Shown here: positions 3,479-21,162 of the stretch, in pieces | How positions within the stretch are numbered: the stretch's first letter is position 1 | Layout of the letters: each line of letters begins with the position of its first letter | Source of the DNA: an uncultured virus (IMG/VR IMGVR_UViG_3300020043_002236) | Taxonomy: Duplodnaviria > Heunggongvirae > Uroviricota > Caudoviricetes > Crassvirales | Virus record (IMG/VR): IMGVR_UViG_3300020043_002236 | Span: 1-64,000 of that record | Length of the DNA stretch: 64,000 bases | Strand: one strand, 5' to 3' | Position numbers and translations under genes: made by a program | Notes under the pieces: model-generated | Databases searched by the model: none | What the model saw: only the letters and a program-made list of their open reading frames with translations | Told to the model about the DNA's origin: nothing

Positions 3479-3578
3479 AATTCCTTTTGTTTTTATATTC
3501 CTGAATAATAAACTAATCCTAAAACTATGTCGTAATAAAAATACATTCTTGAATTCTTATCTCTTTCACTCCAAAATC

Positions 3579-6785: not shown

Positions 6786-7076
6786 TTAAGGGATGTCGTT
6801 AGTCGCTTCCTTCTTAATATTCCATCCTTGGATGCTGTTGAAGTATTTAATTAATCCTTGTGGATCAGTCCACTCTCTACCGCGCAAGTTGATGCCTACC
6901 TCTACATTCTCTCCAACTCTATACTTGTCTAGTATCGCGCACTTGTCCTGATTGAACTCGATGCTGATGTGTTGTGGGTACTGCTCGTCAGTTGATACTA
7001 CGATTTCTCTTTTTGAAAACTTATCAGATACTTGTTGTGTTGATCCGATGAACTTGATTTTTCCTTTTACTTCCAT
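6786..7076 (-). CDS. DUF3127-like OB-fold single-stranded DNA-binding protein
   Basis: MEVKGKI, FSKREIVV, EQYPQHISIEF, INLRGREW, YFNSIQGW. Confidence 0.85.
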   Translation of the reverse strand: MEVKGKIKFIGSTQQVSDKFSKREIVVSTDEQYPQHISIEFNQDKCAILDKYRVGENVEVGINLRGREWTDPQGLIKYFNSIQGWNIKKEATNDIP

Positions 7077-7097
7077 GTTTATTTAATTTAATTTGAT

Positions 7098-7832
7098 TTA
7101 TAATTCTTCTTCAATGATATAATTGTTTATGTCAGCCCACGCGTCCTTACCGAAGAACTTGTTGTACTGATCAATGGCCGAGATTACCTTAACTCGTCCA
7201 GACTCTAAGAAGTCGTCGCTACAAGTAAACTCTCCTAGCATCCCAGTGGTCTTGTCTATTACATAGAACACTAACGGCTTACCGAAGAACTCTTGGTATA
7301 GGTACGCTTGACTGTCGTAGTTGTACTTCTTGGCGCTGTATCTAAAGTCAGATATACTTGACGTCGTCTTGATGTCAATGATCATCTCGTCAGTCACAAT
7401 GTCAGCCTTACCCTTCCACATGGCTCCGTAGATCTCCTTAACGTTTGGCACCTCGAACTGATTGCCAGCCTTATAGATGTTGTCGTAGAAGTGAAGGTTA
7501 CCCTTCATTGTATTGACAAGGTTGTTAAGCTCATCTACCTCAGATCTAAGGATAAGTATACTAGCTCCAGACTCCTTGATCGCGTCTTTGTAGATATTCG
7601 TGTTACGGCTTGACGCGTCCACGATATTAAAGTTACACAACTTCTCTGGCTCCAGTACTGCGGTGTGAAAGTAGCTACCCTCGATCATTGCCTTAGTGGT
7701 CTCCGTATTCTTCTTGAAGTTCTTAGGATTATTTAGTAAGTCTCCGATGTCTGAGTTAGATAGGAACTGCTTACCGAACTCTCCGTAGTAGTCCGCGTCG
7801 TTCTGTAATTTTTCAATGATGTTAGTCGACAT
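7098..7832 (-). CDS. PD-(D/E)XK exonuclease (RecE/ExoVIII, DUF3799-like)
   Basis: LSNSDI, GSYFHTAVLEP, KGKAD, IDIKTT, Y.YDSQAYLY. Confidence 0.85.
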   Translation of the reverse strand: MSTNIIEKLQNDADYYGEFGKQFLSNSDIGDLLNNPKNFKKNTETTKAMIEGSYFHTAVLEPEKLCNFNIVDASSRNTNIYKDAIKESGASILILRSEVDELNNLVNTMKGNLHFYDNIYKAGNQFEVPNVKEIYGAMWKGKADIVTDEMIIDIKTTSSISDFRYSAKKYNYDSQAYLYQEFFGKPLVFYVIDKTTGMLGEFTCSDDFLESGRVKVISAIDQYNKFFGKDAWADINNYIIEEEL

Positions 7833-8346
7833 AATTTCCTAGTTCTTTTTTAGTAGCAGTAGAGATGGTGTACTTAGACTGCAAGTTGTTAATAATATTA
7901 GCCAGACCCAGTTGCTTGTTTGCCTTAACGTACTCGATAACTCCAGCCCAGTTAGGTGACTCTGGTGTTAGTTCTGTCTTGGCATTTACTGGTGCTGATC
8001 CTTCTCCTACCGCTATGATCCTATTGATCGCTAGTCCTTGAGCCTCTCCGATACGTCCCTTGTTAGGCTTAACACTTAACTCAATTGTAATGTTCTTCCA
8101 TGCGTCAACGTTACCAGACTTAACTGCGTTGTGTAGCATTTTACAGTTTCCTGAGTTTAAGATCATCGGCTTGGTTGGTCGTCCAGATGGTAGCTTGGCC
8201 TCTTTAAAGTAGGCTACGTTCTTTAGCTCTTGCTTGGTTAGTTGTACCATCTTCTGCTCTACCCTATCAACGGTGAGCTGTACTGGCCCGTCTAGTTCGT
8301 ATGAACTCATGAATGGGCTGTCGAATGCGTCTTTCCAGTTTGTCAT
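7822..8346 (-). CDS. Putative ssDNA annealing/binding protein
   Basis: Adjacent to RecE-like exonuclease; W..F....+..LT+..V and KPMILN..N pattern. Confidence 0.5.
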   Translation of the reverse strand: MTNWKDAFDSPFMSSYELDGPVQLTVDRVEQKMVQLTKQELKNVAYFKEAKLPSGRPTKPMILNSGNCKMLHNAVKSGNVDAWKNITIELSVKPNKGRIGEAQGLAINRIIAVGEGSAPVNAKTELTPESPNWAGVIEYVKANKQLGLANIINNLQSKYTISTATKKELGNYVD

Positions 8347-8591
8347 TTTATTTTAGATATTATTTGTTTCACTTCTTCTATTCTTGTAAGGCAGTCCTTT
8401 ACGTCCTCGCAGTTCTCTAACTTAAGGTCGAGGTACTTTCTAAGTGCCTGTTCTACAGTAAGATAGTACCACTTGTCTGTGTAAATAAAGTCTACTGTCT
8501 TTCCGTCTTTTTCTCTCTGTCTTGGAGTCTCTAGTTGTAGCGTGGTGCCAACTCCGTCAGACTTGATTGAGTATTCTTCGTCTAGTTTCAT
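8343..8591 (-). CDS. Hypothetical protein
   Basis: 82 aa ORF starting at a junction motif. Confidence 0.65.
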   Translation of the reverse strand: MKLDEEYSIKSDGVGTTLQLETPRQREKDGKTVDFIYTDKWYYLTVEQALRKYLDLKLENCEDVKDCLTRIEEVKQIISKIK

Positions 8592-8594
8592 ATC

Positions 8595-8831
8595 TTATTT
8601 GTTTTTAAATGTTTCGTTATAATATTGTTGTCCGCTTTCGTTTGGCGGTAAAATATTTTTACCTTTATTATGCGCCTCAATAATCTGTTGCTTTTCTTTA
8701 GTATTTATACAATTTTCGCAAATTTCAATAGCATCTAATAATGCTTTTTCAGTAGTATATTTTATTTCATTTGATAAATGAATACGTAATTGTTGTTCAA
8801 AATATAATTTTAATTCTTGTACTGCTGTCAT
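8595..8831 (-). CDS. MTAV...EKQQII...YYNETFKNK family mini-protein
   Basis: Paralogue of 14596..14847 and 9421..9711. Confidence 0.75.
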   Translation of the reverse strand: MTAVQELKLYFEQQLRIHLSNEIKYTTEKALLDAIEICENCINTKEKQQIIEAHNKGKNILPPNESGQQYYNETFKNK

Positions 8832-8844
8832 ATCTTATTTTTTT

Positions 8845-9027
8845 TTAAATTTCTAAAACTTCTTCTTCTGCACATTTGTACAATTCGTTGTCGTCATCTG
8901 CTCTTACGACATAATCAATACCTTTGCTTCTACTAAATGGGTTTTCCCATTTCATTATACGTTCAATAGTACCCGTAAAAGAAGTTTGTTGATTTTCTAC
9001 TTTTACTTTTGTGTTTAATTTTAACAT
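8845..9027 (-). CDS. Small beta-rich hypothetical protein
   Basis: ORF bounded by junction motifs. Confidence 0.65.
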   Translation of the reverse strand: MLKLNTKVKVENQQTSFTGTIERIMKWENPFSRSKGIDYVVRADDDNELYKCAEEEVLEI

Positions 9028-9040
9028 ATCTTATTTGTTT

Positions 9041-9181
9041 TTAAATTAAATTTACAATGTTAGTTGCATAGTTTACTTTTAGTTTATCTAAATCTGAACA
9101 AACTTTGTCAAATTCTTGTTTAGTAAATTTTACAAAGGATAAAAATCCTTTAACGTAAATTTCGTATCTTATTGTTGGCAT
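9041..9181 (-). CDS. 46 aa mini-protein MPTIRYEIYV...NIVNLI
   Basis: Read manually; fills the gap between two junction motifs exactly. Confidence 0.55.
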   Translation of the reverse strand: MPTIRYEIYVKGFLSFVKFTKQEFDKVCSDLDKLKVNYATNIVNLI

Positions 9182-9184
9182 ATA

Positions 9185-9406
9185 TTATTTGGTTTTAAAA
9201 GGTTCAAGTATTACTAAATTGTCGTCGTCATCGTACTCAAAGCAGTCATTACAATAATGTTTGTCGCCAACTTTTTCCCAACCTTCTTCTTGTCTAATAT
9301 CTTCGTTGGCTTCTACATCGCTCCAACAAGAATAACCCGTATCTTCGTTTACATCAGTTCCACAAACATCACAGACAATTGTGAACATTTTTACTTCTTT
9401 TACCAT
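9185..9406 (-). CDS. Small zinc-ribbon protein
   Basis: CDVCG...GW...HYCNDC. Confidence 0.7.
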   Translation of the reverse strand: MVKEVKMFTIVCDVCGTDVNEDTGYSCWSDVEANEDIRQEEGWEKVGDKHYCNDCFEYDDDDNLVILEPFKTK

Positions 9407-9420
9407 AGTTTTTTTATAAA

Positions 9421-9711
9421 TTACTTAATTTCATCTAAAGAATAACTACTTAATACGGCATCCCTAACTTCCTCGTAAGAAGCAATGTCAGTACTTGAAC
9501 CAAGACAAGGTATACTATCCAATGCTTCTTCAAGTGCTTTTTTAACGTGAAATTTAGCAAATTCAATTCTAAGTTTGTTTTCCATTTCTTTGGCTACTTG
9601 TTCTCTTTCACATAAAAAATCAATTAAATTAGCTGATAATTCATCTCCTGCATCTCTTGAAGATTTTGATAACGCTTTAAATTCATTGAATAATAATTCT
9701 ACTGCTGTCAT
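9421..9711 (-). CDS. MTAVE-family hypothetical protein
   Basis: MTAVE start, AKEME motif, IEFAKFHV. Confidence 0.7.
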   Translation of the reverse strand: MTAVELLFNEFKALSKSSRDAGDELSANLIDFLCEREQVAKEMENKLRIEFAKFHVKKALEEALDSIPCLGSSTDIASYEEVRDAVLSSYSLDEIK

Positions 9712-9756
9712 ATCTTATTTGTTTTTAAATTTTAAGTTACCGTTCTTTTATTATTT

Positions 9757-10026
9757 TTATCCTTTTTTTACTTGTTTGGCAACTAAGTTACCTGATAATC
9801 TTTGTTCTAATTTATCCAATCTAGAATCTATTGTTGAGTTCAATGTTTCCTCTGTAGAGCCTATTCTATAATGAATATTTTGTACTTCTTGTGTTACAGT
9901 ACTTACTGTTTCTGCTGTTACTTGTTTTAATAATTTTACTTGTTTTACTAACTTAGACACAACTACAACTCCTATTACAATAAGAACCGTACCTGCACCT
10001 AAACCAAATGTTATAAGTGTTTCCAT
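9757..10026 (-). CDS. N-terminal TM plus coiled-coil protein, flanked by inverted repeats
   Basis: Hydrophobic N-terminus; IDSRLDKLE heptads; IRs at 9728-9748 and 10048-10069. Confidence 0.7.
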   Translation of the reverse strand: METLITFGLGAGTVLIVIGVVVVSKLVKQVKLLKQVTAETVSTVTQEVQNIHYRIGSTEETLNSTIDSRLDKLEQRLSGNLVAKQVKKG

Positions 10027-10076
10027 AATGATTTTTGTTTTAATTTCAAAGAACGGTAATCTTAAAATTATTTTTT

Positions 10077-10286
10077 TTAAATAGTTTCTATTTTTTCAGC
10101 TCCTTCTTGATACATTGGAGATGATACTATCACGTGTATTTGGTTTTTGCCTAAATCACCATTGCAATGAGGACAACATTTATTTTCTAACATTTCAATA
10201 ATAACTTCAGGCGAATTTGATTCGCCAATTATTTTAGCAGGTTTACCTCTCCATAATAAGTATTGACCTAATTTGCCTTGTTTCAT
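10077..10286 (-). CDS. Small Cys-containing protein
   Basis: CPHC motif; starts at a junction motif. Confidence 0.65.
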   Translation of the reverse strand: MKQGKLGQYLLWRGKPAKIIGESNSPEVIIEMLENKCCPHCNGDLGKNQIHVIVSSPMYQEGAEKIETI

Positions 10287-10439
10287 ATCTTATTTGTTTT
10301 TAAATTGTTTCTTTTATTAATTCTATTATTAATCTAACTAAAGCTATTACTATTGCTGTTGTTATTAATGTTGCTATAATATAGTATGACGTATCTAAAA
10401 TTGTTTCTAATATCATCTTATTTGTTTTTATTAAACATG

Positions 10440-10817
10440 TTATTTAAGTTTTAAAATTTCTGTGTACTTGTTCATGATATACGTTCTGTGTGACTTCATC
10501 GAGTGGTAGTGCTTCTGATTGTTACGATTAGTTAGCTCTGTCCTGATTTTATTCTGTATACCATTTAGTGAGCAGTTGTAGTTGAATATACATAGGTTGT
10601 ATACACCCATTCTAAATCCGTGGTTATAGAATACCTCGTACTGATCTTCAGAGATCTCTGTATACTCGTCACCTGGGATTTTAGTATTGTATATCGCAAT
10701 ATGACCCTCTCTATTCTCTATCTTTATACCCTTGTAGATATACGATACAGATACTGGAGTTACTAACCTCTTGGCTAGTGAATCCATCTTTGCCTGATTA
10801 AAAATTTCTTCTTTCAT
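10440..10817 (-). CDS. Hypothetical protein, probably leaderless mRNA
   Basis: 125 aa ORF; TACATTTG lies 4 nt before the ATG. Confidence 0.7.
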   Translation of the reverse strand: MKEEIFNQAKMDSLAKRLVTPVSVSYIYKGIKIENREGHIAIYNTKIPGDEYTEISEDQYEVFYNHGFRMGVYNLCIFNYNCSLNGIQNKIRTELTNRNNQKHYHSMKSHRTYIMNKYTEILKLK

Positions 10818-10821
10818 GTGG

Positions 10822-10829
10822 CAAATGTA
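10822..10829 (-). promoter_or_regulatory. Bacteroidota sigma-70 -7 element
   Basis: TACATTTG matches TAnnTTTG. Confidence 0.65.
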
Positions 10830-10986
10830 TAATTATAAAAGATAAATTCCTAATTTTTTTCCCATTCTTTTTTAAGTTTTTCCTTTATTAATATTAATTT
10901 ATTAATGGAGTACGTGTTGTATCTGACCTGCAGTACCGCTATGACTATATCTAGATCGTTTATTATTTCTCTTTGCTCTTCTGTCA

Positions 10987-11448
10987 TTATAGTAGTGGCT
11001 TAGCTTGTTCAATTAATTCTCTAAAGTTTTCAAAAAATAAATTTCTTATTTCTTCGTCTTTGAATGATAGGAAGGTTCTAGAGTTTTGTAACCTTTCTTT
11101 TCTAATATAGTTTCCAATGAAATAAATACAATATTTAAATTCATCATCGTTCCAATTAGGATTCCACCCATCATTATATACCTTCATTAACTGACTTAGC
11201 TGAGCTATTGCAACGGCTGCTTCAGCTTGTTCTTTTGTGGCAAAAACGTTTGTGTTTTCGTCTGTAGCACTAACACTTGATTGATTTACTCTTGAATTGC
11301 TTTGAATATAATACCCATGTACCCTATCTAACTCCTCCCAATTTTTAGGGAGTCTTTTTTTAATCTCTTTAAATACAATACTTTCAAATGTACTTTTTTC
11401 CTTGTCAATTTCGTATCCTTGTGGGATTTCAATTTTTAATGTCTTCAT
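10987..11448 (-). CDS. Hypothetical protein
   Basis: 153 aa ORF (IEIPQGYEIDKEKST, LPKNWEEL, YNDGWNPNW). Confidence 0.7.
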   Translation of the reverse strand: MKTLKIEIPQGYEIDKEKSTFESIVFKEIKKRLPKNWEELDRVHGYYIQSNSRVNQSSVSATDENTNVFATKEQAEAAVAIAQLSQLMKVYNDGWNPNWNDDEFKYCIYFIGNYIRKERLQNSRTFLSFKDEEIRNLFFENFRELIEQAKPLL

Positions 11449-11450
11449 AA

Positions 11451-11687
11451 TTAAAATAATCTTTTGATTTGTGAGTTATCCATAGATAGAACGCTAGTTA
11501 ATGCGTTGTCCATGTCGTCGTTGGTACTTAAAATTTTGAAGAGAACGTTAACCTTTCTTTCGGTTAGTCGTTTGCCCTGTGAGAAACTCTTCACTCTCAT
11601 CAATGTCTCTTGAAACTTGTTGTGCTCGTCTGGGGTAGTCAAGGTCTCTCCTTGATCGTTTACCCATCTTCCGTTAATTACTTTCAT
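11451..11687 (-). CDS. Hypothetical protein
   Basis: 78 aa ORF. Confidence 0.65.
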   Translation of the reverse strand: MKVINGRWVNDQGETLTTPDEHNKFQETLMRVKSFSQGKRLTERKVNVLFKILSTNDDMDNALTSVLSMDNSQIKRLF

Positions 11688-11792
11688 ATCTTATTTTTTT
11701 TATTTCTTCCTTTCTTGTATTTGCCGTATTGTCATAACTACGACCTTACCTGCTATATATCCAAGTAATAACCCTATAATAAATTCCATCTC

Positions 11793-12005
11793 TTATTTGT
11801 TTTTAAATCCAATGTAAATACTATCTTTAACAGAATATACAATTAATGTATCTCCTGGTTTTGCTATTTGTATTTCTTCAGGGTATGATATTGGTTTGCC
11901 TGAATTATAATCAAAGTTCTTTAATTTATCTACTAAAATAATTGTTAAAATCATTACTAATATAATTCCTATTATCATTGTAAAAAAATACATAATGTTT
12001 TTCAT
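11793..12005 (-). CDS. Small membrane-anchored protein ending FKNK
   Basis: N-terminal TM; stop codon inside a junction motif. Confidence 0.65.
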   Translation of the reverse strand: MKNIMYFFTMIIGIILVMILTIILVDKLKNFDYNSGKPISYPEEIQIAKPGDTLIVYSVKDSIYIGFKNK

Positions 12006-12009
12006 GTTG

Positions 12010-12333
12010 TTATTTGTTTAAAAAATTATTAATCTGATCAAATAACCAACCTGTTAAATAGGCTTCAGGCTCATCGTTATACCTATCAAGTTCCATTGCG
12101 CAGTCTACATATATTTGATTCTTTAAATGAACTATTTCGTGTGCTATGTTACTTAAGTGAGTTGCGTCTGTAAACCCTGTAACGTAGTGTCTATCTTCAT
12201 CTTTTAGTGTAACTGCTCCAAAGTCAGACAGAGACTCTGTCTTATATTTCTTTTCAACATAAGACAAGTCCTTATCTAAAATAATAGTTAACTTACAGCA
12301 ATAGATTGGTATATCTATAGTGGTCTTTATCAT
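12010..12333 (-). CDS. Small zincin-like (HExxH) protein
   Basis: IAHEIVH...DEPEAYLTGW. Confidence 0.65.
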   Translation of the reverse strand: MIKTTIDIPIYCCKLTIILDKDLSYVEKKYKTESLSDFGAVTLKDEDRHYVTGFTDATHLSNIAHEIVHLKNQIYVDCAMELDRYNDEPEAYLTGWLFDQINNFLNK

Positions 12334-12342
12334 TATTTATTT

Positions 12343-12564
12343 TTAAATTAATTTTGAATATTCATATAACACTTTCATTTTATCATATAAATCAATTTTG
12401 GCTGATAAATCTGGACGAACAAATTTTAAAGTGCCTTTCATTTCTTCAATTGTACTGTCAGGATAATCATCCAGCTCCTCTTGTAATATTTCGTAAAATC
12501 TAACGTATTTACCGTTGATGGAAGTGTCCTGTATAATTTCATTTAATAAATCTTGAGTTATCAT
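12343..12564 (-). CDS. Hypothetical protein
   Basis: 73 aa ORF starting at a junction motif. Confidence 0.6.
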   Translation of the reverse strand: MITQDLLNEIIQDTSINGKYVRFYEILQEELDDYPDSTIEEMKGTLKFVRPDLSAKIDLYDKMKVLYEYSKLI

Positions 12565-12567
12565 ATC

Positions 12568-13593
12568 TTATTTGTTTTTAAATTGTTCAAACCATTTTTT
12601 TATAGTTCCAATGCTATTTAATTTACCTTCATTTACTGATAAATAATTATATTCAATTAAAATTTCAATAATATCTTCCTCACTATACATTTCTTTGTCT
12701 TTTTCTTTTTGATTCTTTAATAATTTAATCTCTCTTTTAAGAGCATCAATCTCAAAATGTAAAGCGTTTATATTTTGCATACCCAAAACTATTCTTTCAA
12801 TCTCTTGCATTTCGCTTTGTAATGCAGTAACACCTAAATCGTGTAAATAATTAAATAACTCTTGCTGATACATCCCTACTTCTTCAAGTGTTTCTTGTTC
12901 ACATAAATCTTTAGCTTCTTGCTCGACTTGCTTATCTATTTCTGGGTCGCCATTCTTTTCAAGCCAGTTATCAATAATGTTTTGTTTAGGAAATTCTTGT
13001 TTAGGTTCTGATAAAATACCTATTGATGCTTTTATATGACAATCTTCTGCACTTACACAACATTCATCATCACATTGTTTTTTTGTCTTTGGACAAATAT
13101 AACCTTCTTGTTTAGCTTCTTCTTTTGGAATGATTATTTCGTATTCATAATAACCTTCTTCGTGGTACTGCATTGATATATCTTGAACTTCAACCCACTC
13201 ACAACTCGGATTCTTAACAAACCATTCAAGGAACTCATCATCAATAGCTTGTACGCCATCTTTGATTAAGTCTTGGTCTGTTGTTAGGATAATTTTTTTA
13301 TATCTTTCTTGTAATGAATAATAATCTCCAACAACTTCTCCGATACCATTATTTATTATATGATACCCATCTTGGTCTAATATAACTTTTAATGGAAACA
13401 TAAATTTTTGGTATATAACCCAATCCCCTTCTTTAATTTCTTCATCAGAAGTGATGTAGATGTGTTTTTTATTTTCATCATTAATTTCGTATATAAAATT
13501 AATAGAAAGAAAAAGTTGTCCACATTCGTGTACCCTTAATCTACTCGGTTTCTCTGTTGGTAATACGTGTATGTTCTTACTTTTCACACTCAT
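12568..13593 (-). CDS. Modular hypothetical protein ending WFEQFKNK
   Basis: 341 aa ORF with recurring KQE-type linkers and a Cys-rich insert. Confidence 0.75.
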   Translation of the reverse strand: MSVKSKNIHVLPTEKPSRLRVHECGQLFLSINFIYEINDENKKHIYITSDEEIKEGDWVIYQKFMFPLKVILDQDGYHIINNGIGEVVGDYYSLQERYKKIILTTDQDLIKDGVQAIDDEFLEWFVKNPSCEWVEVQDISMQYHEEGYYEYEIIIPKEEAKQEGYICPKTKKQCDDECCVSAEDCHIKASIGILSEPKQEFPKQNIIDNWLEKNGDPEIDKQVEQEAKDLCEQETLEEVGMYQQELFNYLHDLGVTALQSEMQEIERIVLGMQNINALHFEIDALKREIKLLKNQKEKDKEMYSEEDIIEILIEYNYLSVNEGKLNSIGTIKKWFEQFKNK

Positions 13594-13739
13594 TATAAAT
13601 AGTTATTTTGTCGTCGATCGACATGTTATACCATAAGTTAATAATTTCCTGATCTGGATCGTCCACCCCGTATAGTTTACAAAGTTCTTGTCGTCCCAGT
13701 GTCTTGTACCAAGTGTCTAGCTTGTTCTGTACTGCCTCT

Positions 13740-13925
13740 TTATATGTTGCCATTTTTTATTTCGTATTTAATTAGTGCAAAAATTATGTTCTGTCTTGTT
13801 AGTCTCTTAGCGTCTTCCCAGTTAAGGTTGTTATCCTTCATCTCGTACTTGGCTAGTTGACCAAATTTTTTATTGTACTCGCGCTCTCTGTCAAGGTAGT
13901 TCTTGATGTTTACTTTTCTTCTCAT
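13740..13925 (-). CDS. Hypothetical protein
   Basis: 61 aa ORF. Confidence 0.55.
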   Translation of the reverse strand: MRRKVNIKNYLDREREYNKKFGQLAKYEMKDNNLNWEDAKRLTRQNIIFALIKYEIKNGNI

Positions 13926-14106
13926 CTATTAAATAATTAATGTAGTTATAAATTTCTATTTCACGTTCGGTGCTGACTATCATAGTTGCTACCGTATCGG
14001 AATCTATTATCCCGTTGCCATTAAGGAAGTCGTCGTATAGACTCCTTAGTTCTCTGTTAAGACACTCTAGTTTAGAGGATATCTTTATACTGGCCTCATG
14101 TTGCAT
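13891..14106 (-). CDS. Hypothetical protein
   Basis: 71 aa ORF. Confidence 0.55.
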   Translation of the reverse strand: MQHEASIKISSKLECLNRELRSLYDDFLNGNGIIDSDTVATMIVSTEREIEIYNYINYLIDEKKSKHQELP

Positions 14107-14270
14107 AGTAGTGATATTACTATTACTGTTTCTATTATTGAAAATAGTACTATTACTATTCCGAAAGGATCGTCCTTTGTGTTTCGTATGCCCCAGTTGG
14201 ATAGGTGTGTTAGTACTGTGTGTAGTAGTATTACTACCGCTACTGCTACTGCTAGTGGTATCTGTATCAT
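14085..14270 (-). CDS. Small two-TM protein
   Basis: Two hydrophobic segments. Confidence 0.55.
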   Translation of the reverse strand: MIQIPLAVAVAVVILLHTVLTHLSNWGIRNTKDDPFGIVIVLFSIIETVIVISLLCNMRPV

Positions 14271-14367
14271 AATTTTATTTCTTTTTAAGTTCTTTTAAAA
14301 TTTGCGTTAATAAATATATAACTATGCATATATTAAACGATATTCCAATTACTACTATTTCCATGTG

Positions 14368-14592
14368 TTATTTGTTTTTAAATGTCTCTAAAAATTCTTC
14401 GAGTTTCATTAAATCAGCTAATGATAATGAACTCAATTCGTTTAATTTGCTAATTACACCATCTTTTTGTATTATAGCTCTAAGTCTATCGGTATGCTCT
14501 TTATCTAATTTTCTATCTTCTAATTCAGATATTAAACCATAAGTACTAACTTCGTCTATATAATCTTCTATGTCGATGTCTATTCTTGCCAT
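14368..14592 (-). CDS. Acidic mini-protein ending FKNK
   Basis: ORF bounded by junction motifs at both ends. Confidence 0.7.
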   Translation of the reverse strand: MARIDIDIEDYIDEVSTYGLISELEDRKLDKEHTDRLRAIIQKDGVISKLNELSSLSLADLMKLEEFLETFKNK

Positions 14593-14595
14593 ATC

Positions 14596-14847
14596 TTATT
14601 TTTTTTTAAATGTTTCGTTGTAGTACTGTTCAAAAGAATCGTATTCCGTTTTTCCATCGGACATATAAGAACATCCTTCATTATATGCAAAATAACAAGC
14701 ATCAATAATCTGTTGCTTTTCCATTTCTTTGGCTTGTTTAAATAAATTAGGGATAAAGTCTTTATGTATCGGTACGTTATGAGTCCACATATTAAGATAT
14801 GCCTCGTTATACGCTTTTTCTATAAATTCTACTGCTGTTTGTTTCAT
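14596..14847 (-). CDS. MKQTAVE...EKQQIID...YYNETFKKK family protein
   Basis: Paralogue of 8595..8831. Confidence 0.75.
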   Translation of the reverse strand: MKQTAVEFIEKAYNEAYLNMWTHNVPIHKDFIPNLFKQAKEMEKQQIIDACYFAYNEGCSYMSDGKTEYDSFEQYYNETFKKK

Positions 14848-15047
14848 AACTTTTCTATTTCTTGTTTAAGTTCTTGCCAATATATAAATTCTTTATTTGG
14901 GAATTCAAAATTGTGCCAATCAATAGCGTCTAATATCTCATCAACTGCTATTAATGCACATTGTTTAGCTTGTTCAAATGCTAATGGATTCGGTTGAAAT
15001 TGCATCTTAATTACAATCTCTCTGGCTTTTATTTGGTGTTCGTTCAT
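14844..15047 (-). CDS. AKQCALIAVDEIL...KQEIEKL family protein
   Basis: Paralogue of 63482..63700 and 63697..63945. Confidence 0.75.
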   Translation of the reverse strand: MNEHQIKAREIVIKMQFQPNPLAFEQAKQCALIAVDEILDAIDWHNFEFPNKEFIYWQELKQEIEKL

Positions 15048-15340
15048 AGGTATAGTATTGCTTCGTCTTCGTTAATATCCTCGTCTTGTATCTCTAGTCT
15101 TAAGTTGTCTTGGTCTAGTATGGTTAGGAAGAATGTCCATGAGTTACCAGTCTTCCTTGCCCTAGTTGGAAACTTTTTTGATTCTAGTGTAGGTCTCTTA
15201 AATACAACCTTATTATCGTATACCTTGTACACAAATTCTTGATTGAACCAGTCGTTACTGATACTCACATTAAATCTGTACGGACATGTTGTGCTGTTAG
15301 GGTACAGCCTAACCTCGTTTTGCTTTATCGGTGTTCTCAT
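15044..15340 (-). CDS. Hypothetical protein
   Basis: 98 aa ORF, ATGA-coupled. Confidence 0.6.
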   Translation of the reverse strand: MRTPIKQNEVRLYPNSTTCPYRFNVSISNDWFNQEFVYKVYDNKVVFKRPTLESKKFPTRARKTGNSWTFFLTILDQDNLRLEIQDEDINEDEAILYL

Positions 15341-15549
15341 AACTTGCTTGTTTTTATAAATCCAATCTCTACTCCAATCTGAACGTCATCCCAGTTCAGT
15401 GCGTCTTCAAGGTCTTGTCTTGTTACTATCTGTGATTCACTCTCATCATCGCGAAGGGCAAAGATTGTTTTGCCATCGTGAAAGTATTGTATTGCATCGT
15501 GATAGCTTAGTATCTGCCATGCAAATCCGTCCTGTGTTATTTTTTCCAT
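15337..15549 (-). CDS. Hypothetical protein
   Basis: 70 aa ORF. Confidence 0.6.
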   Translation of the reverse strand: MEKITQDGFAWQILSYHDAIQYFHDGKTIFALRDDESESQIVTRQDLEDALNWDDVQIGVEIGFIKTSKL

Positions 15550-15630
15550 GTCTTTTTTATTTATTTACTACTACTACCATCATGGTAAAGAATACTGCCC
15601 ATAGCAGTATCACGTAGGCTATCTGTTTCT

Positions 15631-15912
15631 TCATAGTTCTGTTGCTTCTTTAATTAAATTTTCTGCTTCAATTAAATCTGATATATCTAAATCAGGTTGT
15701 ATTAATCTTTTGAGCATCTCCAACATTTCAGGAGCTTTTGATATTAGTAATGCGTTTGCTCTGAATTCTTCATCAGGCAATTCATCGCGCATATCTTGTC
15801 TTTTAGAGAACGCACAAATAACGGTGTCATCTCCTCCTGCACTGAAAACATAATGAGGAGTTGTTTTTATACAACAGCTCCACCACTTCCCTTTTGTTCC
15901 TTTAAATTCCAT
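15631..15912 (-). CDS. Phage hypothetical protein (FKGTKGKW...ANALLISKAPEML type)
   Basis: Common phage mini-protein pattern. Confidence 0.7.
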   Translation of the reverse strand: MEFKGTKGKWWSCCIKTTPHYVFSAGGDDTVICAFSKRQDMRDELPDEEFRANALLISKAPEMLEMLKRLIQPDLDISDLIEAENLIKEATEL

Positions 15913-15923
15913 ATCTTATTTGT

Positions 15924-16166
15924 TTAGTTATTAGGTACACAACAATTCGATGGGCATACTACTGCGCACTGCGGTGTATCGTGGAAGCCTACACATTCCG
16001 TGCACTTCTCCGCCACGATGTAGTATACATCGTCAGATAACGGCGCTTGTTTTACGTTGTCGTTCTTGTACGTCCATTGTGTACTTGGTTCGTATATTGC
16101 GTTGTTGGGACACTCCCACTCGCATAGTCCGCAGTTAATGCAACTATCTGTTATTTTGAGACTCAT
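15924..16166 (-). CDS. 2x[4Fe-4S] ferredoxin, YfhL-like
   Basis: CINCGLCEWECP and CTECVGFHDTPQCAVVCP. Confidence 0.92.
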   Translation of the reverse strand: MSLKITDSCINCGLCEWECPNNAIYEPSTQWTYKNDNVKQAPLSDDVYYIVAEKCTECVGFHDTPQCAVVCPSNCCVPNN

Positions 16167-16374
16167 ATTTTTGTCGTTCGATTAAAAGTTTTTCAGCTAT
16201 TTCGTAAGCGAATTCTGCTGATTCTTGTAACGTAGTTATATCTTGCCATAACGATGGGTTGCTTATTACCCCAGTAATTACTTGACCCGCGAAGTAGTCG
16301 CGTAGTGTCATGCCTGGATTGGACTTGTCGTCTGCGTGTTTTAATGGAAATGCTGTTGGGTTTTTAGTTTTCAT
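16144..16374 (-). CDS. Phage protein with AFP...GMTLRDYFA motif
   Basis: Widespread phage motif GMTLRDYFA. Confidence 0.75.
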   Translation of the reverse strand: MKTKNPTAFPLKHADDKSNPGMTLRDYFAGQVITGVISNPSLWQDITTLQESAEFAYEIAEKLLIERQKYESQNNR

Positions 16375-16768
16375 TGTTATAATATTTTATGAATTTGATT
16401 ACTGCGTTGTATGTTGCTTCTATTTTTGTTCTCTCGAATGTTTCCACAACTGGTAGTGGATATCTGTTGTCTACAATATTAACGGATGTCATTAGAATTT
16501 CAAAAACATATTGAGAAAATCCTTCTTTATCCTCTATCTCTTCTATCTTATCCACTGCTTGCATTAGCCAGTTCCAATCTAGATGAAATAGTAGTCGGTC
16601 TTCTGAGTGCCAGTCTCCACTTATGTAGTAGAATTTTTTCCGTCCCAAGTACCAATGATAGGAGTTCTCTATTAGCGTAGCTTCTATTGAGTCTATGCTT
16701 TTTGATGGGTAACCGATAAACTCGGCTATAAGTTTGTTGTTGTCTGCTATTGTGCACATAGTTCCCAA
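16364..16768 (-). CDS. Hypothetical protein
   Basis: NNKLIAEFIG...FHLDWNWLMQAVDKIE...AVIKFIKYYN. Confidence 0.7.
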   Translation of the reverse strand: MGTMCTIADNNKLIAEFIGYPSKSIDSIEATLIENSYHWYLGRKKFYYISGDWHSEDRLLFHLDWNWLMQAVDKIEEIEDKEGFSQYVFEILMTSVNIVDNRYPLPVVETFERTKIEATYNAVIKFIKYYNNEN

Positions 16769-17019
16769 GTATTAAGTTGTTTTACATTTTGTCGCGTCAA
16801 CCCCAGTTGGCTTACAATAAACTTGGCCAGTTTCTTGTTGCCTATTGTGTTGTTGTCAATCTCTGCCGTTCCAATTACATCAATGATTACTCTAGGCCCT
16901 ATACCTAAAACCCTTTGACAGAACTTTACGTCTTGGCCTAGGAAGAATTGTTTTCTGTTGTACTCTAGTGTCCAGTTGCGACCGAATCCGTAGTCGCCTT
17001 GTGTGATAATTACTCTCAT
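16747..17019 (-). CDS. Hypothetical protein (start revised to MRVIITQG)
   Basis: The track's 27-aa N-terminal extension lies in a tRNA-like element; A-rich leader before ATG 17019. Confidence 0.65.
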   Translation of the reverse strand: MRVIITQGDYGFGRNWTLEYNRKQFFLGQDVKFCQRVLGIGPRVIIDVIGTAEIDNNTIGNKKLAKFIVSQLGLTRQNVKQLNTWELCAQ

Positions 17020-17042
17020 GTTATTAATTAATTTAAGGTTAG

Positions 17043-17114
17043 TGAAGAGGGCAGGACCCGAACCTGCATTAAGATAGTATATTCTATCTTGCGTTACCAT
17101 TTCGCCACCTCTTC
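17043..17114 (-). ncRNA. tRNA-like RNA without a canonical anticodon loop
   Basis: Acceptor GAAGAGG/CCTCTTC, D-arm TGGCGAAATGGTAACGC, stem AGATAG-AATATA-CTATCT, T-arm GCAGG-TTCGGGT-CCTGC. Confidence 0.75.
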
Positions 17115-17263
17115 GTGTGCCAGTCTTTCCTAGCAGTCACTTATGTGTTGTTTTACGTCTTGAATTCAAATCTTTTCAATTCAGTGACCATACAAACGTA
17201 GCGATACAACCAACAACACGGCCTACATTTCAAAGTTGGAAAGGAGTTATGATGTATGGTCAC
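17115..17263 (-). ncRNA. Putative structured, pseudoknotted RNA abutting the tRNA-like element
   Basis: 11-bp stem 17184-17194/17253-17263; 8-bp pairing 17212-17219/17145-17152; terminal TGCTAG-GAAAGA-CTGGCA hairpin. Confidence 0.5.
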
Positions 17264-17474
17264 CTAGTCTTTTTATTGTTAGGTTGGTGCTTGTTTTAAT
17301 TCTCTCTAGCGTGTCCTCGTGCTTATCCTCGAACCACTTTGGTATATCTACAACTACTAGGTAGTCGTTAACTATCGTGTGCTCGAATGACTTCGGGATA
17401 AAGAACGGCTGACCACCATCGTCGATAGTCAGCGCGTTGTTAGATAGTTGTCTTGGGTATAGTTGTAGTGTCAT
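17247..17474 (-). CDS. Hypothetical protein
   Basis: 75 aa ORF (FFIPKS...IPKWF). Confidence 0.65.
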   Translation of the reverse strand: MTLQLYPRQLSNNALTIDDGGQPFFIPKSFEHTIVNDYLVVVDIPKWFEDKHEDTLERIKTSTNLTIKRLGDHTS

Positions 17475-17683
17475 AATCCTTTTTCTTTTTTAAATATTTC
17501 TAATACTTGTTCGTATGTTTTTAAAGTTTTATATACTTCTATTCCGTAATTACTTTTATCGAACCATTTAACAAACTCTAAAGCATAATCGTATGTTATG
17601 TTTTCTAATTCTATAATATTTTCTGCAACTGTTTCATTTGTTGGAGAATCGTGCCATTTTTGAAATTTTTCTTTTAAATTCAT
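17471..17683 (-). CDS. MNLKEKF...FKKEKGL paralogue
   Basis: 17601-17676 is identical to 354-429 (76 bp). Confidence 0.75.
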   Translation of the reverse strand: MNLKEKFQKWHDSPTNETVAENIIELENITYDYALEFVKWFDKSNYGIEVYKTLKTYEQVLEIFKKEKGL

Positions 17684-17849
17684 TATCGTAGTTTATTTAA
17701 GTTAAACACAAATTGACTACCATCTTCAAATTTGAACAATCCGTAATTCTTATTCTTTTCAATTAAAGTTCCTATTGAATCTTCTTTGAACTTGTATTTT
17801 GTTCCTAATTCCATTTTTACTAATGGTAAAAAAACTTTTTTATGTGTCA

Positions 17850-18173
17850 TTATCGTATGAAGTATTGGTTATCAAACTTGTAGCGTTGTCCGTTGTAGTT
17901 CTGTGCGTACACTAGTAGGTCGAACTGGTCTGTGCTTACCGCGATGCAGTTCTGTGTTAGTATCGTGGACAACTCTTCAATCTTCTTGATGAAGTGGCTA
18001 GTCCTAGCGTATGTACTCTCTAGTTCTACAATCAGAGTCGGCTCGTGCTCGTCCTCGTATCGTCCGATGCCGAACTTGTACGTGTCGATGTCGTAGTCCT
18101 CTCTTAACTTGTTGATGATTGCCTCTTGGCTCAATGGGTTGTTGTTTAATCCGATGTTTAAAGTTGCTTTCAT
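17850..18173 (-). CDS. Hypothetical early protein
   Basis: 107 aa ORF (LNIGL...EPTL...QNCIAV...FDNQYF). Confidence 0.7.
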   Translation of the reverse strand: MKATLNIGLNNNPLSQEAIINKLREDYDIDTYKFGIGRYEDEHEPTLIVELESTYARTSHFIKKIEELSTILTQNCIAVSTDQFDLLVYAQNYNGQRYKFDNQYFIR

Positions 18174-18242
18174 GATTAATTAATTTAGATTATTAAAAGT
18201 GTCTTTGTGTTACGCCCTTGTTGTCTCCGAATAGGAACTTGC

Positions 18243-18401
18243 TTATCTTGTTGTAGATTTTTGTCGCCATAATGATTTGCCTTTTTTTAAGATGTAATTT
18301 GATTGGTGCTTGTTTAGTCCGTGGTGGCTTGCCCAGTTTGTTGCGCTTAGCCAGTTGTTTACGTAGTCTAAATAGATACGTAGGATGTCGTTGTTAGTCA
18401 T
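18243..18401 (-). CDS. 52 aa early protein MTNNDILRIYLDYVNNWLS...
   Basis: Read manually; overlaps the stop of 18394..18648. Confidence 0.6.
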   Translation of the reverse strand: MTNNDILRIYLDYVNNWLSATNWASHHGLNKHQSNYILKKGKSLWRQKSTTR

Positions 18402-18648
18402 ATTTTTTAATTTTTACATAAGAAATAAATGTACCTTGAAAGTTAAATAACTCGTCATTACATTCTTCCATAAAATCATTTAGACTAAAAAACTGCGGAT
18501 AATCTTCGTCTTCGTCTTCTACGTTTAGATGTGATTTTAAATAATCTCTTAAGTCTGTATAACTTTCAAATACTTGTTCTTGTATCTCGTCACAAACTTT
18601 TCTTGCGTTTGTGTAATGTACTGGTATTGATACTATTGTTGTTTCCAT
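18394..18648 (-). CDS. Acidic early protein
   Basis: 19 D/E in 84 aa. Confidence 0.7.
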   Translation of the reverse strand: METTIVSIPVHYTNARKVCDEIQEQVFESYTDLRDYLKSHLNVEDEDEDYPQFFSLNDFMEECNDELFNFQGTFISYVKIKKYD

Positions 18649-18652
18649 TGTG

Positions 18653-18748
18653 TTAGTCTATTAAATAAGTTAGTAAATTAAATGTAATGATGATCAATAC
18701 GATCGTGATCTGTAGGTATAGTCTACCTTGCTTTTGTGATTTTGTCAT
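18653..18748 (-). CDS. 31 aa single-TM peptide MTKSQKQGRLYLQITIVLIIITFNLLTYLID
   Basis: Read manually; first ORF after ribozyme C. Confidence 0.55.
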   Translation of the reverse strand: MTKSQKQGRLYLQITIVLIIITFNLLTYLID

Positions 18749-18766
18749 GATGTTATTAATTAAATT

Positions 18767-18816
18767 GGTTAAGACTCCCGAAGGAGTTTCGTCTACTTAA
18801 GACTCGTCAGTTAACC
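18767..18816 (-). ncRNA. Type I hammerhead ribozyme (HHR-C)
   Basis: GGUUAA-CUGACGA-GUCU uaagu AGAC-GAAA-CUCC uucg GGAG-UC^UUAACC. Confidence 0.92.
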
Positions 18817-19024
18817 TACAACTTTCTATTTCAGTTAGGTACTCGTCGTAGAAGCTATTGAATAAATCTTGTGCCTCTTCCGTATATCTAACTTCATCAT
18901 CTGTTTCAATCTCAATTCCGTTTGGAAATTCAAAGCTATAGTCTGATTCATTTAGACCTTCTGAATAGTTGTACAATTTTTGAGATGCTAAATTACTTGC
19001 TAATTCAATTTCGTTGATGTTCAT
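18797..19024 (-). CDS. Highly acidic early protein between two hammerheads
   Basis: 20 D/E versus 3 K/R in 75 aa; last codons run into HHR-C. Confidence 0.75.
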   Translation of the reverse strand: MNINEIELASNLASQKLYNYSEGLNESDYSFEFPNGIEIETDDEVRYTEEAQDLFNSFYDEYLTEIESCRLTDES

Positions 19025-19041
19025 AATAATTAATTTTTAAT

Positions 19042-19091
19042 GGTTAAGACGCCTCTCGGCGTTTCGATCATTTAGATCTCGTCAGTTAACC
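19042..19091 (-). ncRNA. Type I hammerhead ribozyme (HHR-B)
   Basis: GGUUAA-CUGACGA-GAUC uaaau GAUC-GAAA-CGCC gaga GGCG-UC^UUAACC. Confidence 0.92.
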
Positions 19092-19285
19092 TATCTTCTA
19101 AACCCGAACGCATTACCTTGTTCGTCTATGTAGTACAATGCGTTTGATGTATAGCTTCCGTAGAATGATCCGCCAGTTGCTAGAGCTACTATTAAGAAGC
19201 AGGCTCCTGCATTTTTTCTTGCCTTGATTAGTTTAGTGAATTTCTCGTTTGTAATTTCGTTTGCTTTGTTGATAATTGATTTCAT
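19091..19285 (-). CDS. First early ORF, between HHR-A and HHR-B
   Basis: 64 aa ORF; its TAG stop abuts HHR-B. Confidence 0.65.
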   Translation of the reverse strand: MKSIINKANEITNEKFTKLIKARKNAGACFLIVALATGGSFYGSYTSNALYYIDEQGNAFGFRR

Positions 19286-19299
19286 AATAATAAATAATT

Positions 19300-19354
19300 A
19301 ACGTTTCGAGGTTCTGCCTCTCATCAGTACAGCGAGTTGTTAGCTGTATACGTT
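19300..19354 (-). ncRNA. Type III hammerhead ribozyme (HHR-A)
   Basis: AACG-UA^-UACAGC uaacaacuc GCUGUA-CUGAUGA-GAGG cagaa CCUC-GAAA-CGUU. Confidence 0.92.
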
Positions 19355-19691
19355 GCATCCTCATGACTATGTTTCCTTGTCGGTGTCGTGACGATGGCAC
19401 TGGGCTTTTAACCAGAGTGTGCTTACCCTATTTTATCCTGTTTTATCAGTCTGCCACTTTTTACATCTGTGGTCTCGATGGTTTGTTCGTTAGTGTAGGT
19501 GATTGATAGTTGATGTCTTTAGGATTGTAAAGCCTTTCTCGTCTCGTCCCTTTACTTTCACTGCCTCTCATTGGGTCAGGTAGGGATGAAGTTTCTAGTA
19601 TGCTATCCTACTGATTATCAAGCAGTTAGAAGCTAACTTGCTGGAAATCAATCACTTACAATAAAATTAAGAACGTGTCGCTCATTTGAAC
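19349..19691 (-). ncRNA. Putative structured ~340-nt leader RNA of the early transcript
   Basis: No long ORF; nested stems; bounded by a promoter and the HHR-A cleavage site. Confidence 0.5.
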
Positions 19692-19695
19692 ACTG

Positions 19696-19703
19696 CAATA
19701 CTA
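19696..19703 (-). promoter_or_regulatory. Putative early promoter -7 element
   Basis: TAGTATTG (1 mismatch to TAnnTTTG) with upstream TTG, heading the minus-strand run. Confidence 0.5.
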
Positions 19704-20024
19704 CGCAGTTAGTTTTAGTCTCACAAGAAAAAGTTTAATTATTTTTGATTTTGTTCGAATTTTTATGACATTCTCAGTGAATTGATTATTTTGATGAGAA
19801 TAATGCAACGAATAGTATACAATATTGCATATTATGTAACAAAAAATAACGAAGTTTGTTTAATGTGTTGATTATCAGTGTCTTACGTATTGTCTTTGCT
19901 TACTATTGGATTTGTGTGGGGAAGGTTTGGACGTGGGCTATTTCAAGCCTCTGTATATCTACGTGTAATACCAATTCACGCGCAAATATTCTCATGACGC
20001 GGGAAGTCCCGTAAACACTGGGAT

Positions 20025-20301
20025 TATGTCGAGTTTTGAAAAAATATGTCGGAAATATGTCAAGAATTTTGAGCTAACTTATTGATAATCAACAATCTAT
20101 GTTAATATGTCGTTTTTTACTATCCTAAATAGAATTTTTTTAAAAATATAAAATATATAAAATCATATATAGCCTATATAGGAAAAAAAACGTCAGTACG
20201 ACATGAGCTTTAACTTAACCCTTGCTATTGCTGGAATGTTGCTAAAAAAAACCGACATAAAATCGACATGCTCCCGACATATTTAATACCAACTTGACAT
20301 A
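20025..20301. other. Putative replication origin: inverted iteron arrays around an AT-rich core
   Basis: TATGTC(G/A) at 20025, 20045, 20056, 20106; inverse (C/T)GACAT at 20199, 20253, 20264, 20275, 20295; at the strand switch. Confidence 0.6.
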
Positions 20302-20333
20302 AATACGCTATCATATCGTAATAAATTAATTCG

Positions 20334-20341
20334 TATCTTTG
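20334..20341 (+). promoter_or_regulatory. -7 promoter element
   Basis: TATCTTTG before ORF 20371. Confidence 0.6.
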
Positions 20342-20370
20342 TCATGAATAATTTTAAATAACAAAACAAA

Positions 20371-20862
20371 ATGAAAACATGTAGTAAGTGTAAAGAAAAA
20401 AAGGAACTTTCTGATTTTAATATTGATAAAAGTAAATTGGATGGTCTTCGACCTGATTGTAAAATTTGCAGAAAAGAGGTTAGTAAAAAATATATTAGAC
20501 CATTAGAAAAAAAACCGCCAAAACCAAAAAGTTTAATGTTATTGGCTTATGAAGAAAAAGAACTTAAAAGAAAACAAAAAGCAATTCAATATAGAATTGA
20601 TAATAAAGAAAAATTAAAACAATATAGAGATTCTAAAAAAGAAGAAAAAAGATTGTATGATAAGCGATATAAGATAATTAATAAGGAAGTAATAAATCAA
20701 AAAGATAAGATATATAAAGAAGCAAACAAAGAACGATTAAAACAATACAGAGACTCGCGCAAGGAATTAAAGAGAGAGTATGATAAGCAGTATAAGATTG
20801 ATAACAAAGAACGCATCAACGAGAGAGATAGATTATATCAGCAACGTAAACGATTGGAATAG
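20371..20862 (+). CDS. Zn-finger plus charged helical repeat protein (endonuclease-like N-terminus, no nuclease domain seen)
   Basis: CSKC...CKIC; duplicated KE.LKQYRDS.KE.KR.YDK.YKI.NKE.IN unit. Confidence 0.65.
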   Translation: MKTCSKCKEKKELSDFNIDKSKLDGLRPDCKICRKEVSKKYIRPLEKKPPKPKSLMLLAYEEKELKRKQKAIQYRIDNKEKLKQYRDSKKEEKRLYDKRYKIINKEVINQKDKIYKEANKERLKQYRDSRKELKREYDKQYKIDNKERINERDRLYQQRKRLE

Positions 20863-21154: not shown

Positions 21155-21162
21155 TATATTTG
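21155..21162 (+). promoter_or_regulatory. -7 promoter element
   Basis: TATATTTG, TTG at 21132, ATG 4 nt downstream. Confidence 0.65.

Follow-up and report, generated by a model that had tools for sequence, protein, structure and literature searches.

The 64,000-nt window analysed here, close to the whole of a 64,053-bp phage record (IMG/VR IMGVR_UViG_3300020043_002236), carries on its minus strand an array of small genes connected by a recurrent 22-nt stop/start motif, hereafter the joint. Sequence comparison of motif-bearing loci showed exchange, duplication and cross-lineage sharing of genes with endpoints at the motif edges. The 22-mer is probably a translation-coupling stop/start joint that doubles as a short-homology recombination anchor and operates without a cassette integrase; the enzymology would be that of general short-homology recombination. 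An earlier, sequence-only reading of the window had proposed an integrase-free, integron-like array, and its claims are taken up where the results bear on them.

The 22-nt joint and its distribution

Ten copies of the motif at three or fewer mismatches are present in the window, all on the minus strand, and none of 100 shuffled sequences had any match. All ten lie where the sequence-only reading had placed five exact and five imperfect copies. The exact copies are at 8589..8610, 9025..9046, 9709..9730, 10284..10305 and 12562..12583; those at 8829..8850, 11787..11808 and 14590..14611 have one mismatch, the copy at 14362..14383 has two and that at 9179..9200 has three. The partial copies reported earlier held up less evenly. 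On the same strand, those at 15910..15931 (4 mismatches), 11685..11706 (6 mismatches in fixed register, preceding the conserved gene 11451-11687) and 10412-10433 (6 in fixed register) are present, and near 12003 the core alone is kept, with altered spacing and 9 mismatches in register.

The next open reading frame (ORF) takes its ATG from each full copy, and the copy usually also holds the stop codon of the preceding gene in one of two frames, as had been claimed. The F-K-x-K-stop frame is used at 8595, 9185, 11793, 12568, 14368 and 14596, and the I-stop frame at 8845, 9041 and 10300 (copies 8829, 9025 and 10284). The 9709 copy is wholly intergenic, with the preceding stop at 9757, and the last copy, 8589..8610, gives the ATG of the conserved gene 8343-8591. 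Among 263 viral copies, 241 end in ATG, 155 carry the upstream stop in the F-K-x-K frame and 45 in the I-stop frame; the median downstream ORF is 67 aa, and copies are confined to one strand in all loci except one. An AT-richer synonymous spelling was found in 18 stretches, compared with at least 126 for the motif spelling, and the Asn codon in the motif is a minority codon (background 0.38). Because two reading frames are used and the AT-richer synonymous spelling is rare, motif conservation is at the nucleotide level and not at the protein level, in agreement with the earlier suggestion of DNA- or RNA-level conservation.

The joint is phage-specific. The exact 21-mer occurs in at least 126 IMG/VR stretches, whereas 185,579 cellular genomes (596 Gb) yielded 7 stretches, located on 5 contigs; three of these seven lie on a single Flavobacterium contig with array cargo (L130, discussed below). 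When all synonymous spellings were allowed, 51 scattered stretches were found in cellular genomes. These few and scattered occurrences indicate that the motif is not a general host start. Within the window, none of 30 late-gene starts comes within 5 mismatches of the motif, and 11 of 51 minus-strand starts come within 4. The possibility that the motif is equally common at core or host gene starts, which had been named as a test of the array, is thus answered in the array's favour.

Five large genomes (114-256 kb) hold 2-13 same-strand copies each, mostly clustered, and only one of the five has a match, a weak one, to the window terminase; a different terminase family adjoins the motif in 22 of 80 loci. 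Conversely, the close relative L137 has no motif copy, and an uncultured spring record that matches the window terminase at 74% shows at most scattered 3-mismatch matches. On these sequence comparisons, the joint is patchy inside a lineage yet common to separate lineages.

No secondary structure accompanies the motif. All five exact copies folded no better than shuffled sequences (z -0.37 to 1.09, RNA energy parameters), and no terminator-like site was found on the minus strand in 8300-16500. A sigma-70 promoter scan gave 43 sites against 39.7 expected, with a tool whose scope lies outside Bacteroidota promoters. A scan of 7000-22500 with Rfam returned tRNA as the sole family and nothing for the motif, and a literature search, which most subscription papers and supplements lay beyond, turned up no account of it.

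The near-invariant spelling, which extends even to the non-coding 3 nt between stop and start, and the restriction to early accessory genes on one strand would also suit a regulator site: the motif would mainly be bound or cleaved by a translational repressor or activator, or by an RNase timing early genes, purifying selection would hold it invariant and recombination would be a by-product. There is a precedent in the start-associated sequences (SAS) of Cluster K mycobacteriophages, which, like the joint, are asymmetric short repeats directly 5' of non-core starts, mostly in one orientation (PMC3203893). The SAS is a 13-nt G-rich element for which a role either in translation or in protein binding is considered, and the available part of that account shows no gene swapping (PMC3203893). 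The 22-nt motif, in contrast, also holds the upstream stop and marks breakpoints; it is an unrelated A-rich sequence in which neither the SAS consensus nor the inverted repeats of the ESAS were found, and it resembles the SAS in position only. A regulator site is quite unlikely for further reasons: no regulator family is common to the motif loci, the most frequent neighbour (27 of 80 loci) being itself cargo; phage lineages that are unrelated have the motif, and some closely related ones lack it; and intragenic linkers, described below, behave alike without lying at starts.

Two other families of repeated gene-end/next-start junctions, with stop and start mostly overlapping, were observed in the window, one at 169-233, 411-475, 3557-3621 and 17449-17513, the other at 14844-14898, 63482-63536 and 63697-63751. 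These are likely analogous joints.

Breakpoints at the joint

Breakpoints were surveyed over 284 de-duplicated motif copies with full flanks, which fell into 233 upstream and 239 downstream flank clusters; exact duplicate contexts were removed before counting, for motif and controls alike. Repeated upstream flanks were followed by at least two different downstream genes in 38 of 40 cases, and repeated downstream flanks were preceded by at least two upstream genes in 29 of 32. At the edges of the motif, identity declines from a level of about 0.9 to one of 0.3. Pairs that share one flank had swapped the other at motif starts in 94 of 98 cases; the figure was 18 of 35 pairs for starts resembling the motif, 219 of 411 for all other starts and 26 of 179 for positions inside genes. 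For the relatives found by protein search, taken by themselves, the counts were 18 of 20 at the motif and 120 of 267 at other starts. In 56 of 59 pairs, homology stopped within the motif or no more than 4 nt from its 3' edge; on the 5' side, with a limit of 5 nt, the same was true of 56 of 57 pairs.

Comparison of the window with 12 relatives found by protein search (L134-L139 and L149-L154) located individual events. A variable slot at 8592..10439 (minus strand), which holds eight cargo genes of 38-96 aa in the window, is bounded by the conserved genes 10440-10817 and 8343-8591. At its left edge (10412..10449, minus strand) the partial joint meets the border gene 10440-10817, which already ends in motif-like sequence. 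The slot contains one gene in L154, two in L150, three in L153 and six in L151, and is empty, with a 1-nt spacer, in 8 of the 12 relatives. The alleles of two, six and eight genes differ motif-to-motif. L150 tracks the window to 10280, 4 nt past the 10284 copy, carries a different gene and is back at 8614; L151 tracks it to exactly 9709, carries three other genes and is back at exactly 8610. The junction 8589..8610 is thus the rejoin or branch point for both L150 and L151, and also for sequencing runs X1, X5 and X8.

Single units have moved as well. The 60-aa cargo gene at 8845..9027 (minus strand) belongs to a motif-to-motif unit (9046-8829) that sits at another position in L136 at 100% identity; the core of that relative is about 95% identical. 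The unit of the 46-aa gene at 9041..9181 (minus strand; unit 9200-9025) recurs at 96-98% identity in L152 and L121, where neither flank is the same, and sits elsewhere in L152. Copy 9025..9046 borders units moved in L136, L152 and L121, and copy 9179..9200 is the 5' border of a unit common to L152, L121 and L009. Further along the array, swaps with L136, L139 and L007 occur at 11787..11808; the downstream gene of 12562..12583 is common to the unrelated loci L004 and L053 and its upstream end to L020 and L056; and homology with L138 begins at 14385, next to 14362..14383. The upstream neighbour of the partial joint 11685..11706 is different in all 11 informative relatives. The gene 15631-15912 is absent from L136, L150 and L152 (and L134), which join 15918 to 15634, and the partial copy 15910..15931 is a grafted 3' half of the joint that arose with insertion of this gene at an 8-nt look-alike. 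Exchange also crosses lineages: a 356-bp unit is 99% identical, with both flanks different, between the close relative L135 and L046, whose source is a complete 256-kb genome without a match to the window terminase. The prediction that gain, loss and reordering breakpoints fall in the motif was accordingly upheld by the slot alleles and the partner swaps, in the sense of enrichment and not of exclusivity, as over half of the non-motif junctions also break.

All array-bearing records are assemblies, and the window record has inverted-duplicate ends: window positions 1-119 and the last 110 nt of the genome repeat internal sequence (at 63122 and 1540) exactly and in inverted orientation, which is probably an artefact that arose during assembly or amplification. 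It could be asked, therefore, if short-read assemblers mis-joined strain variants across the 22-nt repeat. This is scarcely credible as an explanation of the array. Window blocks are reproduced by contigs from four runs, one in each of four studies, and these contigs stop or branch at 8589, 8610, 8614, 8849 and 9704-9709, which argues against mis-assembly, and blocks with several motif copies recur in independent assemblies (11695-9709 in L151; 9709-10985 in run X8, where homology of record 25 with the window stops exactly at 9709). Other studies also contain the L150-type allele at 8614 and the L151-type break at 9709. A 22-nt repeat between unique flanks fits within a short read, and the differences of 1-13% often seen between moved units are not something that mis-joining would produce.

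The units themselves resemble cassettes. Of 236 motif-to-motif units, 156 are one ORF ending in the next motif; units move precisely, also between lineages; and L134 has an exact tandem duplication of a 286-bp unit. Among 84 similar-unit pairs with both flanks, 33 differ on both and 3 on one, the 48 that differ on none being largely overlapping loci or identical strains. Such behaviour would be expected of a true site-specific cassette system, with a fixed cut by an unrecognised phage or host recombinase and circular single-gene intermediates as in integrons. We nevertheless consider this very improbable. The motif is asymmetric and unfolded, and 74 of the 236 units carry more than one ORF or end off-motif. 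No single crossover position emerged: variants at motif positions 1-5 travel with the upstream gene (17/19) and not the downstream gene (1/58), those at positions 6-19 mostly travel with neither (9/41, 7/67), and their co-segregation shows no sharp switch point, although later mutation or conversion could blur one. A motif-to-motif back-joint, the sign of a circle, was absent from the 15 of 137 joints listed, in contigs only.

The recombinase searches point the same way. In support of the earlier claim of an integrase-free array, the genome has no match to the tyrosine integrase family PF00589 (control, 14/14). Pfam and PHROGs scans of 33, 34 and 30 window proteins gave no recombinase, serine recombinases not having been searched as a family, and none of 41 array-neighbour representatives is an integrase. 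The latter were taken from the 70 most widespread of 228 clusters, formed from 547 ORFs of at least 130 aa in loci L001-L080. What remains of the integron likeness is the same-strand single-ORF units and their gain and loss; a hairpin, a fixed crossover point and circles were not seen.

Several observations weigh against a recombination anchor. Most loci were picked by the motif itself, and the pairs are not independent events. In the window-referenced comparison, the motif was broken in 22 of 26 informative observations, yet non-motif junctions also broke in 89 of 147 (60 of 111 within 8591-15912; Fisher p 0.025 and 0.004, with non-independent cells; per-junction p 0.046 and 0.024). The excess at the motif is genuine here, though modest, given that the region is plastic throughout. 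The empty alleles (main slot, 11687 and 15918) join at 2-8 nt microhomologies and not at an intact motif. The array-bearing sequences are all metagenomic assemblies, and two cultured Flavobacterium phages show scattered 3-mismatch matches only. Finally, no recombinase is tied to the arrays, RecE-like proteins being found in 17 and Erf-like proteins in 9 of 80 loci.

The same observations give some room to selection as a mere filter, in which the motif is a preferred stop/start context that was copied along with one expanding mini-gene family, and random illegitimate recombination is filtered for translatable starts, so that breakpoints would accumulate at gene boundaries without the motif promoting crossover. 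In the same regions, about half of the comparisons at other starts also show a break, motif contexts are unstructured, and the A-run at -14 to -11 matches an initiation signal known from Flavobacterium in the available portion of the reporter study (PMC6847099). In that portion, however, G at -3 and U at -6 are unfavourable, an A-3G change cutting GFP by 70% (PMC6847099), and the motif has both; it is thus not an optimal start, and initiation is better taken, tentatively, as coupled to the stop 3 nt before it than as optimal and independent. Hosts and late genes do not use the motif, and selection for a start accounts neither for homology that sets in at motif base 1, 19 nt before the ATG, in unrelated upstream genes read in two frames, nor for the rare-codon linkers inside genes. 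A filter without promotion is, on balance, unlikely.

A joint that doubles as a recombination anchor would act on two levels. As RNA, the unstructured A-rich stop/start junction would provide whichever gene follows with a Bacteroidota-type start that can be used, its initiation coupled to the stop lying 3 nt before it. As DNA, it is the short homology that recurs most widely across the early accessory genes of many phages of freshwater Bacteroidota, and general short-homology recombination or template switching, carried out by enzymes of the phage or the host, would cross over in the motif or at its edges. The outcome, whose exchange pattern is shown by the sequences, is in-frame, translatable gain, loss, duplication and exchange of mini-genes within genomes and between unrelated co-occurring phages. 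The joint is the commonest of a small vocabulary of anchors, the others being intragenic and giving chimeric proteins. Sites may spread by grafting of the 3' half onto A-rich look-alikes, as in the one case at 15918, and the spelling probably stays uniform since consensus copies recombine most and convert each other.

Cargo genes, neighbouring genes and host

The 17 motif-adjacent genes have a mean GC content of 0.28, compared with 0.37 for 11 conserved small genes and 0.42 for 5 core genes, so that the cargo is indeed more AT-rich than the core. Among the scanned genes of the cargo region (8595-15912), no Pfam family scored above cut-off, and the PHROGs matched were of unknown function only. 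The cargo genes had been called unrelated, which is not the case throughout, since 8595-8831, 9421-9711 and 14596-14847 have short internal linkers in common. Linkers that shuffle half-genes had also been overlooked.

The 83-aa mini-protein at 14596..14847 (minus strand) is a chimera from a large unnamed family (969 matches), with an internal linker at 14733-14701 conserved as DNA. Its C-terminal half is identical in L150 under another N-terminal half, and that N-terminal half is joined to a different C-terminal half in L136. A tblastn search of this protein against GenBank phages gave no match. In another search, a weak Bacillus phage match (47 nt, E 2e-3) was judged to be chance. The 341-aa modular protein at 12568..13593 (minus strand), whose family is the one found in 27 of 80 motif loci, has several conserved linkers, at about 13465, 13300-13190, 13134 and 12896. 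Frequent 16-mers near the motif include intragenic ones (14735/9596, 14726, 14717/8692, 14622/8621, 13134 and 12896), with swap fractions of 0.83-1.0 on small counts.

Six linkers were defined by coordinates, of which two were uninformative (one out of frame, one including a stop). In four linkers found at the protein level, one codon was kept at 0.92-0.94, compared with 0.51-0.63 expected, and rare codons were retained: Ala GCC in 36 of 47 (background 0.08) and Lys AAG in 45 of 49 (background 0.27). Such codon identity could also stem from recent common descent. However, the modules between linkers are unrelated (the 61 proteins with the 14735 linker combine 52 N-modules and 57 C-modules in 60 combinations), and recombination is therefore favoured. 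The pattern shown by these sequences is that some cargo genes are related chimeras, their half-genes shuffled at DNA-conserved internal linkers.

One cargo unit has a separate signature. The 89-aa gene at 9757..10026 (minus strand), with an N-terminal hydrophobic stretch, is enclosed by its own inverted repeat, with arms at 9726-9748 and 10048-10070 (RNA fold z -3.36). The arms enclose diverged homologues in 8 of 22 IMG/VR matches, directly after tRNA-like 3' ends, and ARAGORN tRNAs lie within the locus in 4 of those 8; in the cultured phage immuto, the 5' part of the unit follows a tRNA-Cys. From these positions, the gene was apparently recruited from tRNA-adjacent sites of other phages. The inverted-repeat unit may act in regulation through 5'-3' pairing, or it may be a mobile unit in its own right that the array has taken up.

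The array had been placed one gene from a RecE-like exonuclease/annealing/SSB module, a description that stands for its two outer members. The RecE-like PD-(D/E)xK exonuclease (7098..7832, minus strand; DUF3799, phrog_412) and the single-strand DNA-binding protein (SSB; 6786..7076, minus strand; phrog_4932, DUF3127) were supported. The protein described as an annealase, 174 aa at 7822..8346 (minus strand), has no Pfam or annealase-family match and falls in unnamed Atlas clusters with unannotated homologues. Its predicted structure (pLDDT 81) combines a beta barrel and a small helical domain, and structure matches are weak (OB folds, DUF669 and phage SSBs; best Z 5.2, root-mean-square deviation 3.6, 76 aligned). 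On this model it looks like a protein with an SSB-like, OB-fold N-domain, with no sign of an annealase. The supposed link between array and module was not borne out, none of the five large motif-bearing phages having a match to the window RecE-like protein. The nuclease module is not a fixed part of the arrays, and their distribution does not require it; the adjacent nuclease may still take part in exchange. The gap between the nuclease and SSB genes (7076-7098) is itself a variable slot without the motif, occupied by an extra gene in 9 of 11 informative relatives; in L150 this gene resembles an HNH endonuclease by eye.

The plus strand of the genome encodes a terminase, a portal and a capsid-type virion protein; the primase-helicase is encoded, together with the SSB and RecE-like proteins, on the minus strand. 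Among 87 GenBank phages with a match to the window terminase, 68 are Flavobacterium phages (Elemovirus, at about 46% identity), and the sequencing runs that contain the region are freshwater or aquatic metagenomes wherever the record names a source. L130, a 7.1-kb contig in a Flavobacterium metagenome-assembled genome, has three exact motif copies and cargo modules in common with the window. It is likely a binned phage fragment and gives a hint of Flavobacterium as host genus; the host would thus be a Flavobacterium-type bacterium.

Other features of the window include a host-like 4Fe-4S ferredoxin gene at 15924-16166 and further host-like genes for GroEL and GroES, a MazG-like protein and ThyX (22843-24748; 58708-59025; 61397-62041). 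A GC-richer 53-nt direct repeat (18766-18818 and 19041-19093) lies in a small-gene region by the strand switch. A tRNA-Met, a second, longer Rfam tRNA match and an atypical ARAGORN call are among 21745-21867, 21974-22048 and 17042-17114.

Comparison with known exchange systems

Integron arrays consist of tandem, same-strand, promoterless single-gene units that are gained, lost, duplicated and reordered through attC sites and IntI. The window array shares the same-strand single-ORF units bounded by a site, and differs in having no IntI and no attC-type hairpin, in showing no sign of a fixed crossover, and in a site that overlaps the coding ends of both genes; it is not an integron. Classical linkers, the 'boundary sequences' of lambdoid phages among them, are each tied to their own position, every module slot having one. 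The joint, by contrast, is a single linker with as many as 13 copies in a genome, which leaves the order and number of modules free, and a module may be only half a gene. The Botstein-Campbell model, as given in the available part of a T4-type phage study, holds that conserved short linkers place and express exchanged modules correctly (PMC2839356).

A further likeness is to the promoter-early stem-loop (PeSL) cassettes of T4-type phages. In the available text of the two reports, these are repeated expression signals in hyperplastic regions that serve as exchange points for unrelated small ORFs, no integrase has been identified and the authors themselves draw the comparison with integrons (PMC2839356, PMC4122927). 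The principle of an integrase-free exchange anchor is therefore already known. A PeSL comprises a promoter and a terminator hairpin, isolates each cassette transcriptionally, and has been shown to give mini-circles (PMC2839356, PMC4122927). As with PeSLs, insertions, deletions and replacements in a hyperplastic region have their endpoints at the motif. A tandem duplication, as in L134, would be the reciprocal product of mini-circle excision, but no circle was seen among the contig joints listed. The 22-nt joint differs in being unstructured, partly coding and shared across unrelated phage lineages, with extra intragenic anchors. It works like PeSL-mediated modular shuffling but is no PeSL, because the defining terminator-like stem-loop is missing.

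The finding bears on an old question, stated in the accessible part of the literature as the choice between random illegitimate recombination with selection and reusable linkers as the source of phage mosaicism (PMC2839356). A 22-nt linker can be counted against matched gene boundaries, which makes the linker model directly testable, and this one is common to unrelated phage lineages at up to 99% cassette identity. With the motif as a tag, early mini-proteins that are so far uncharacterised can also be gathered in large numbers. More tentatively, and as a proposal that we hold to be plausible but short of probable, unrelated freshwater Bacteroidota phages (about 40-256 kb, with different terminases) may share a community-wide plug standard, made up of the joint and a few intragenic linkers and kept uniform by the recombination that it promotes and not by protein function. 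Such a standard would give access to a pool of thousands of mini- and half-genes and would be a recombinase-free generator of chimeric small proteins. If so, this generator of diversity would probably be aimed at host takeover or anti-defence.

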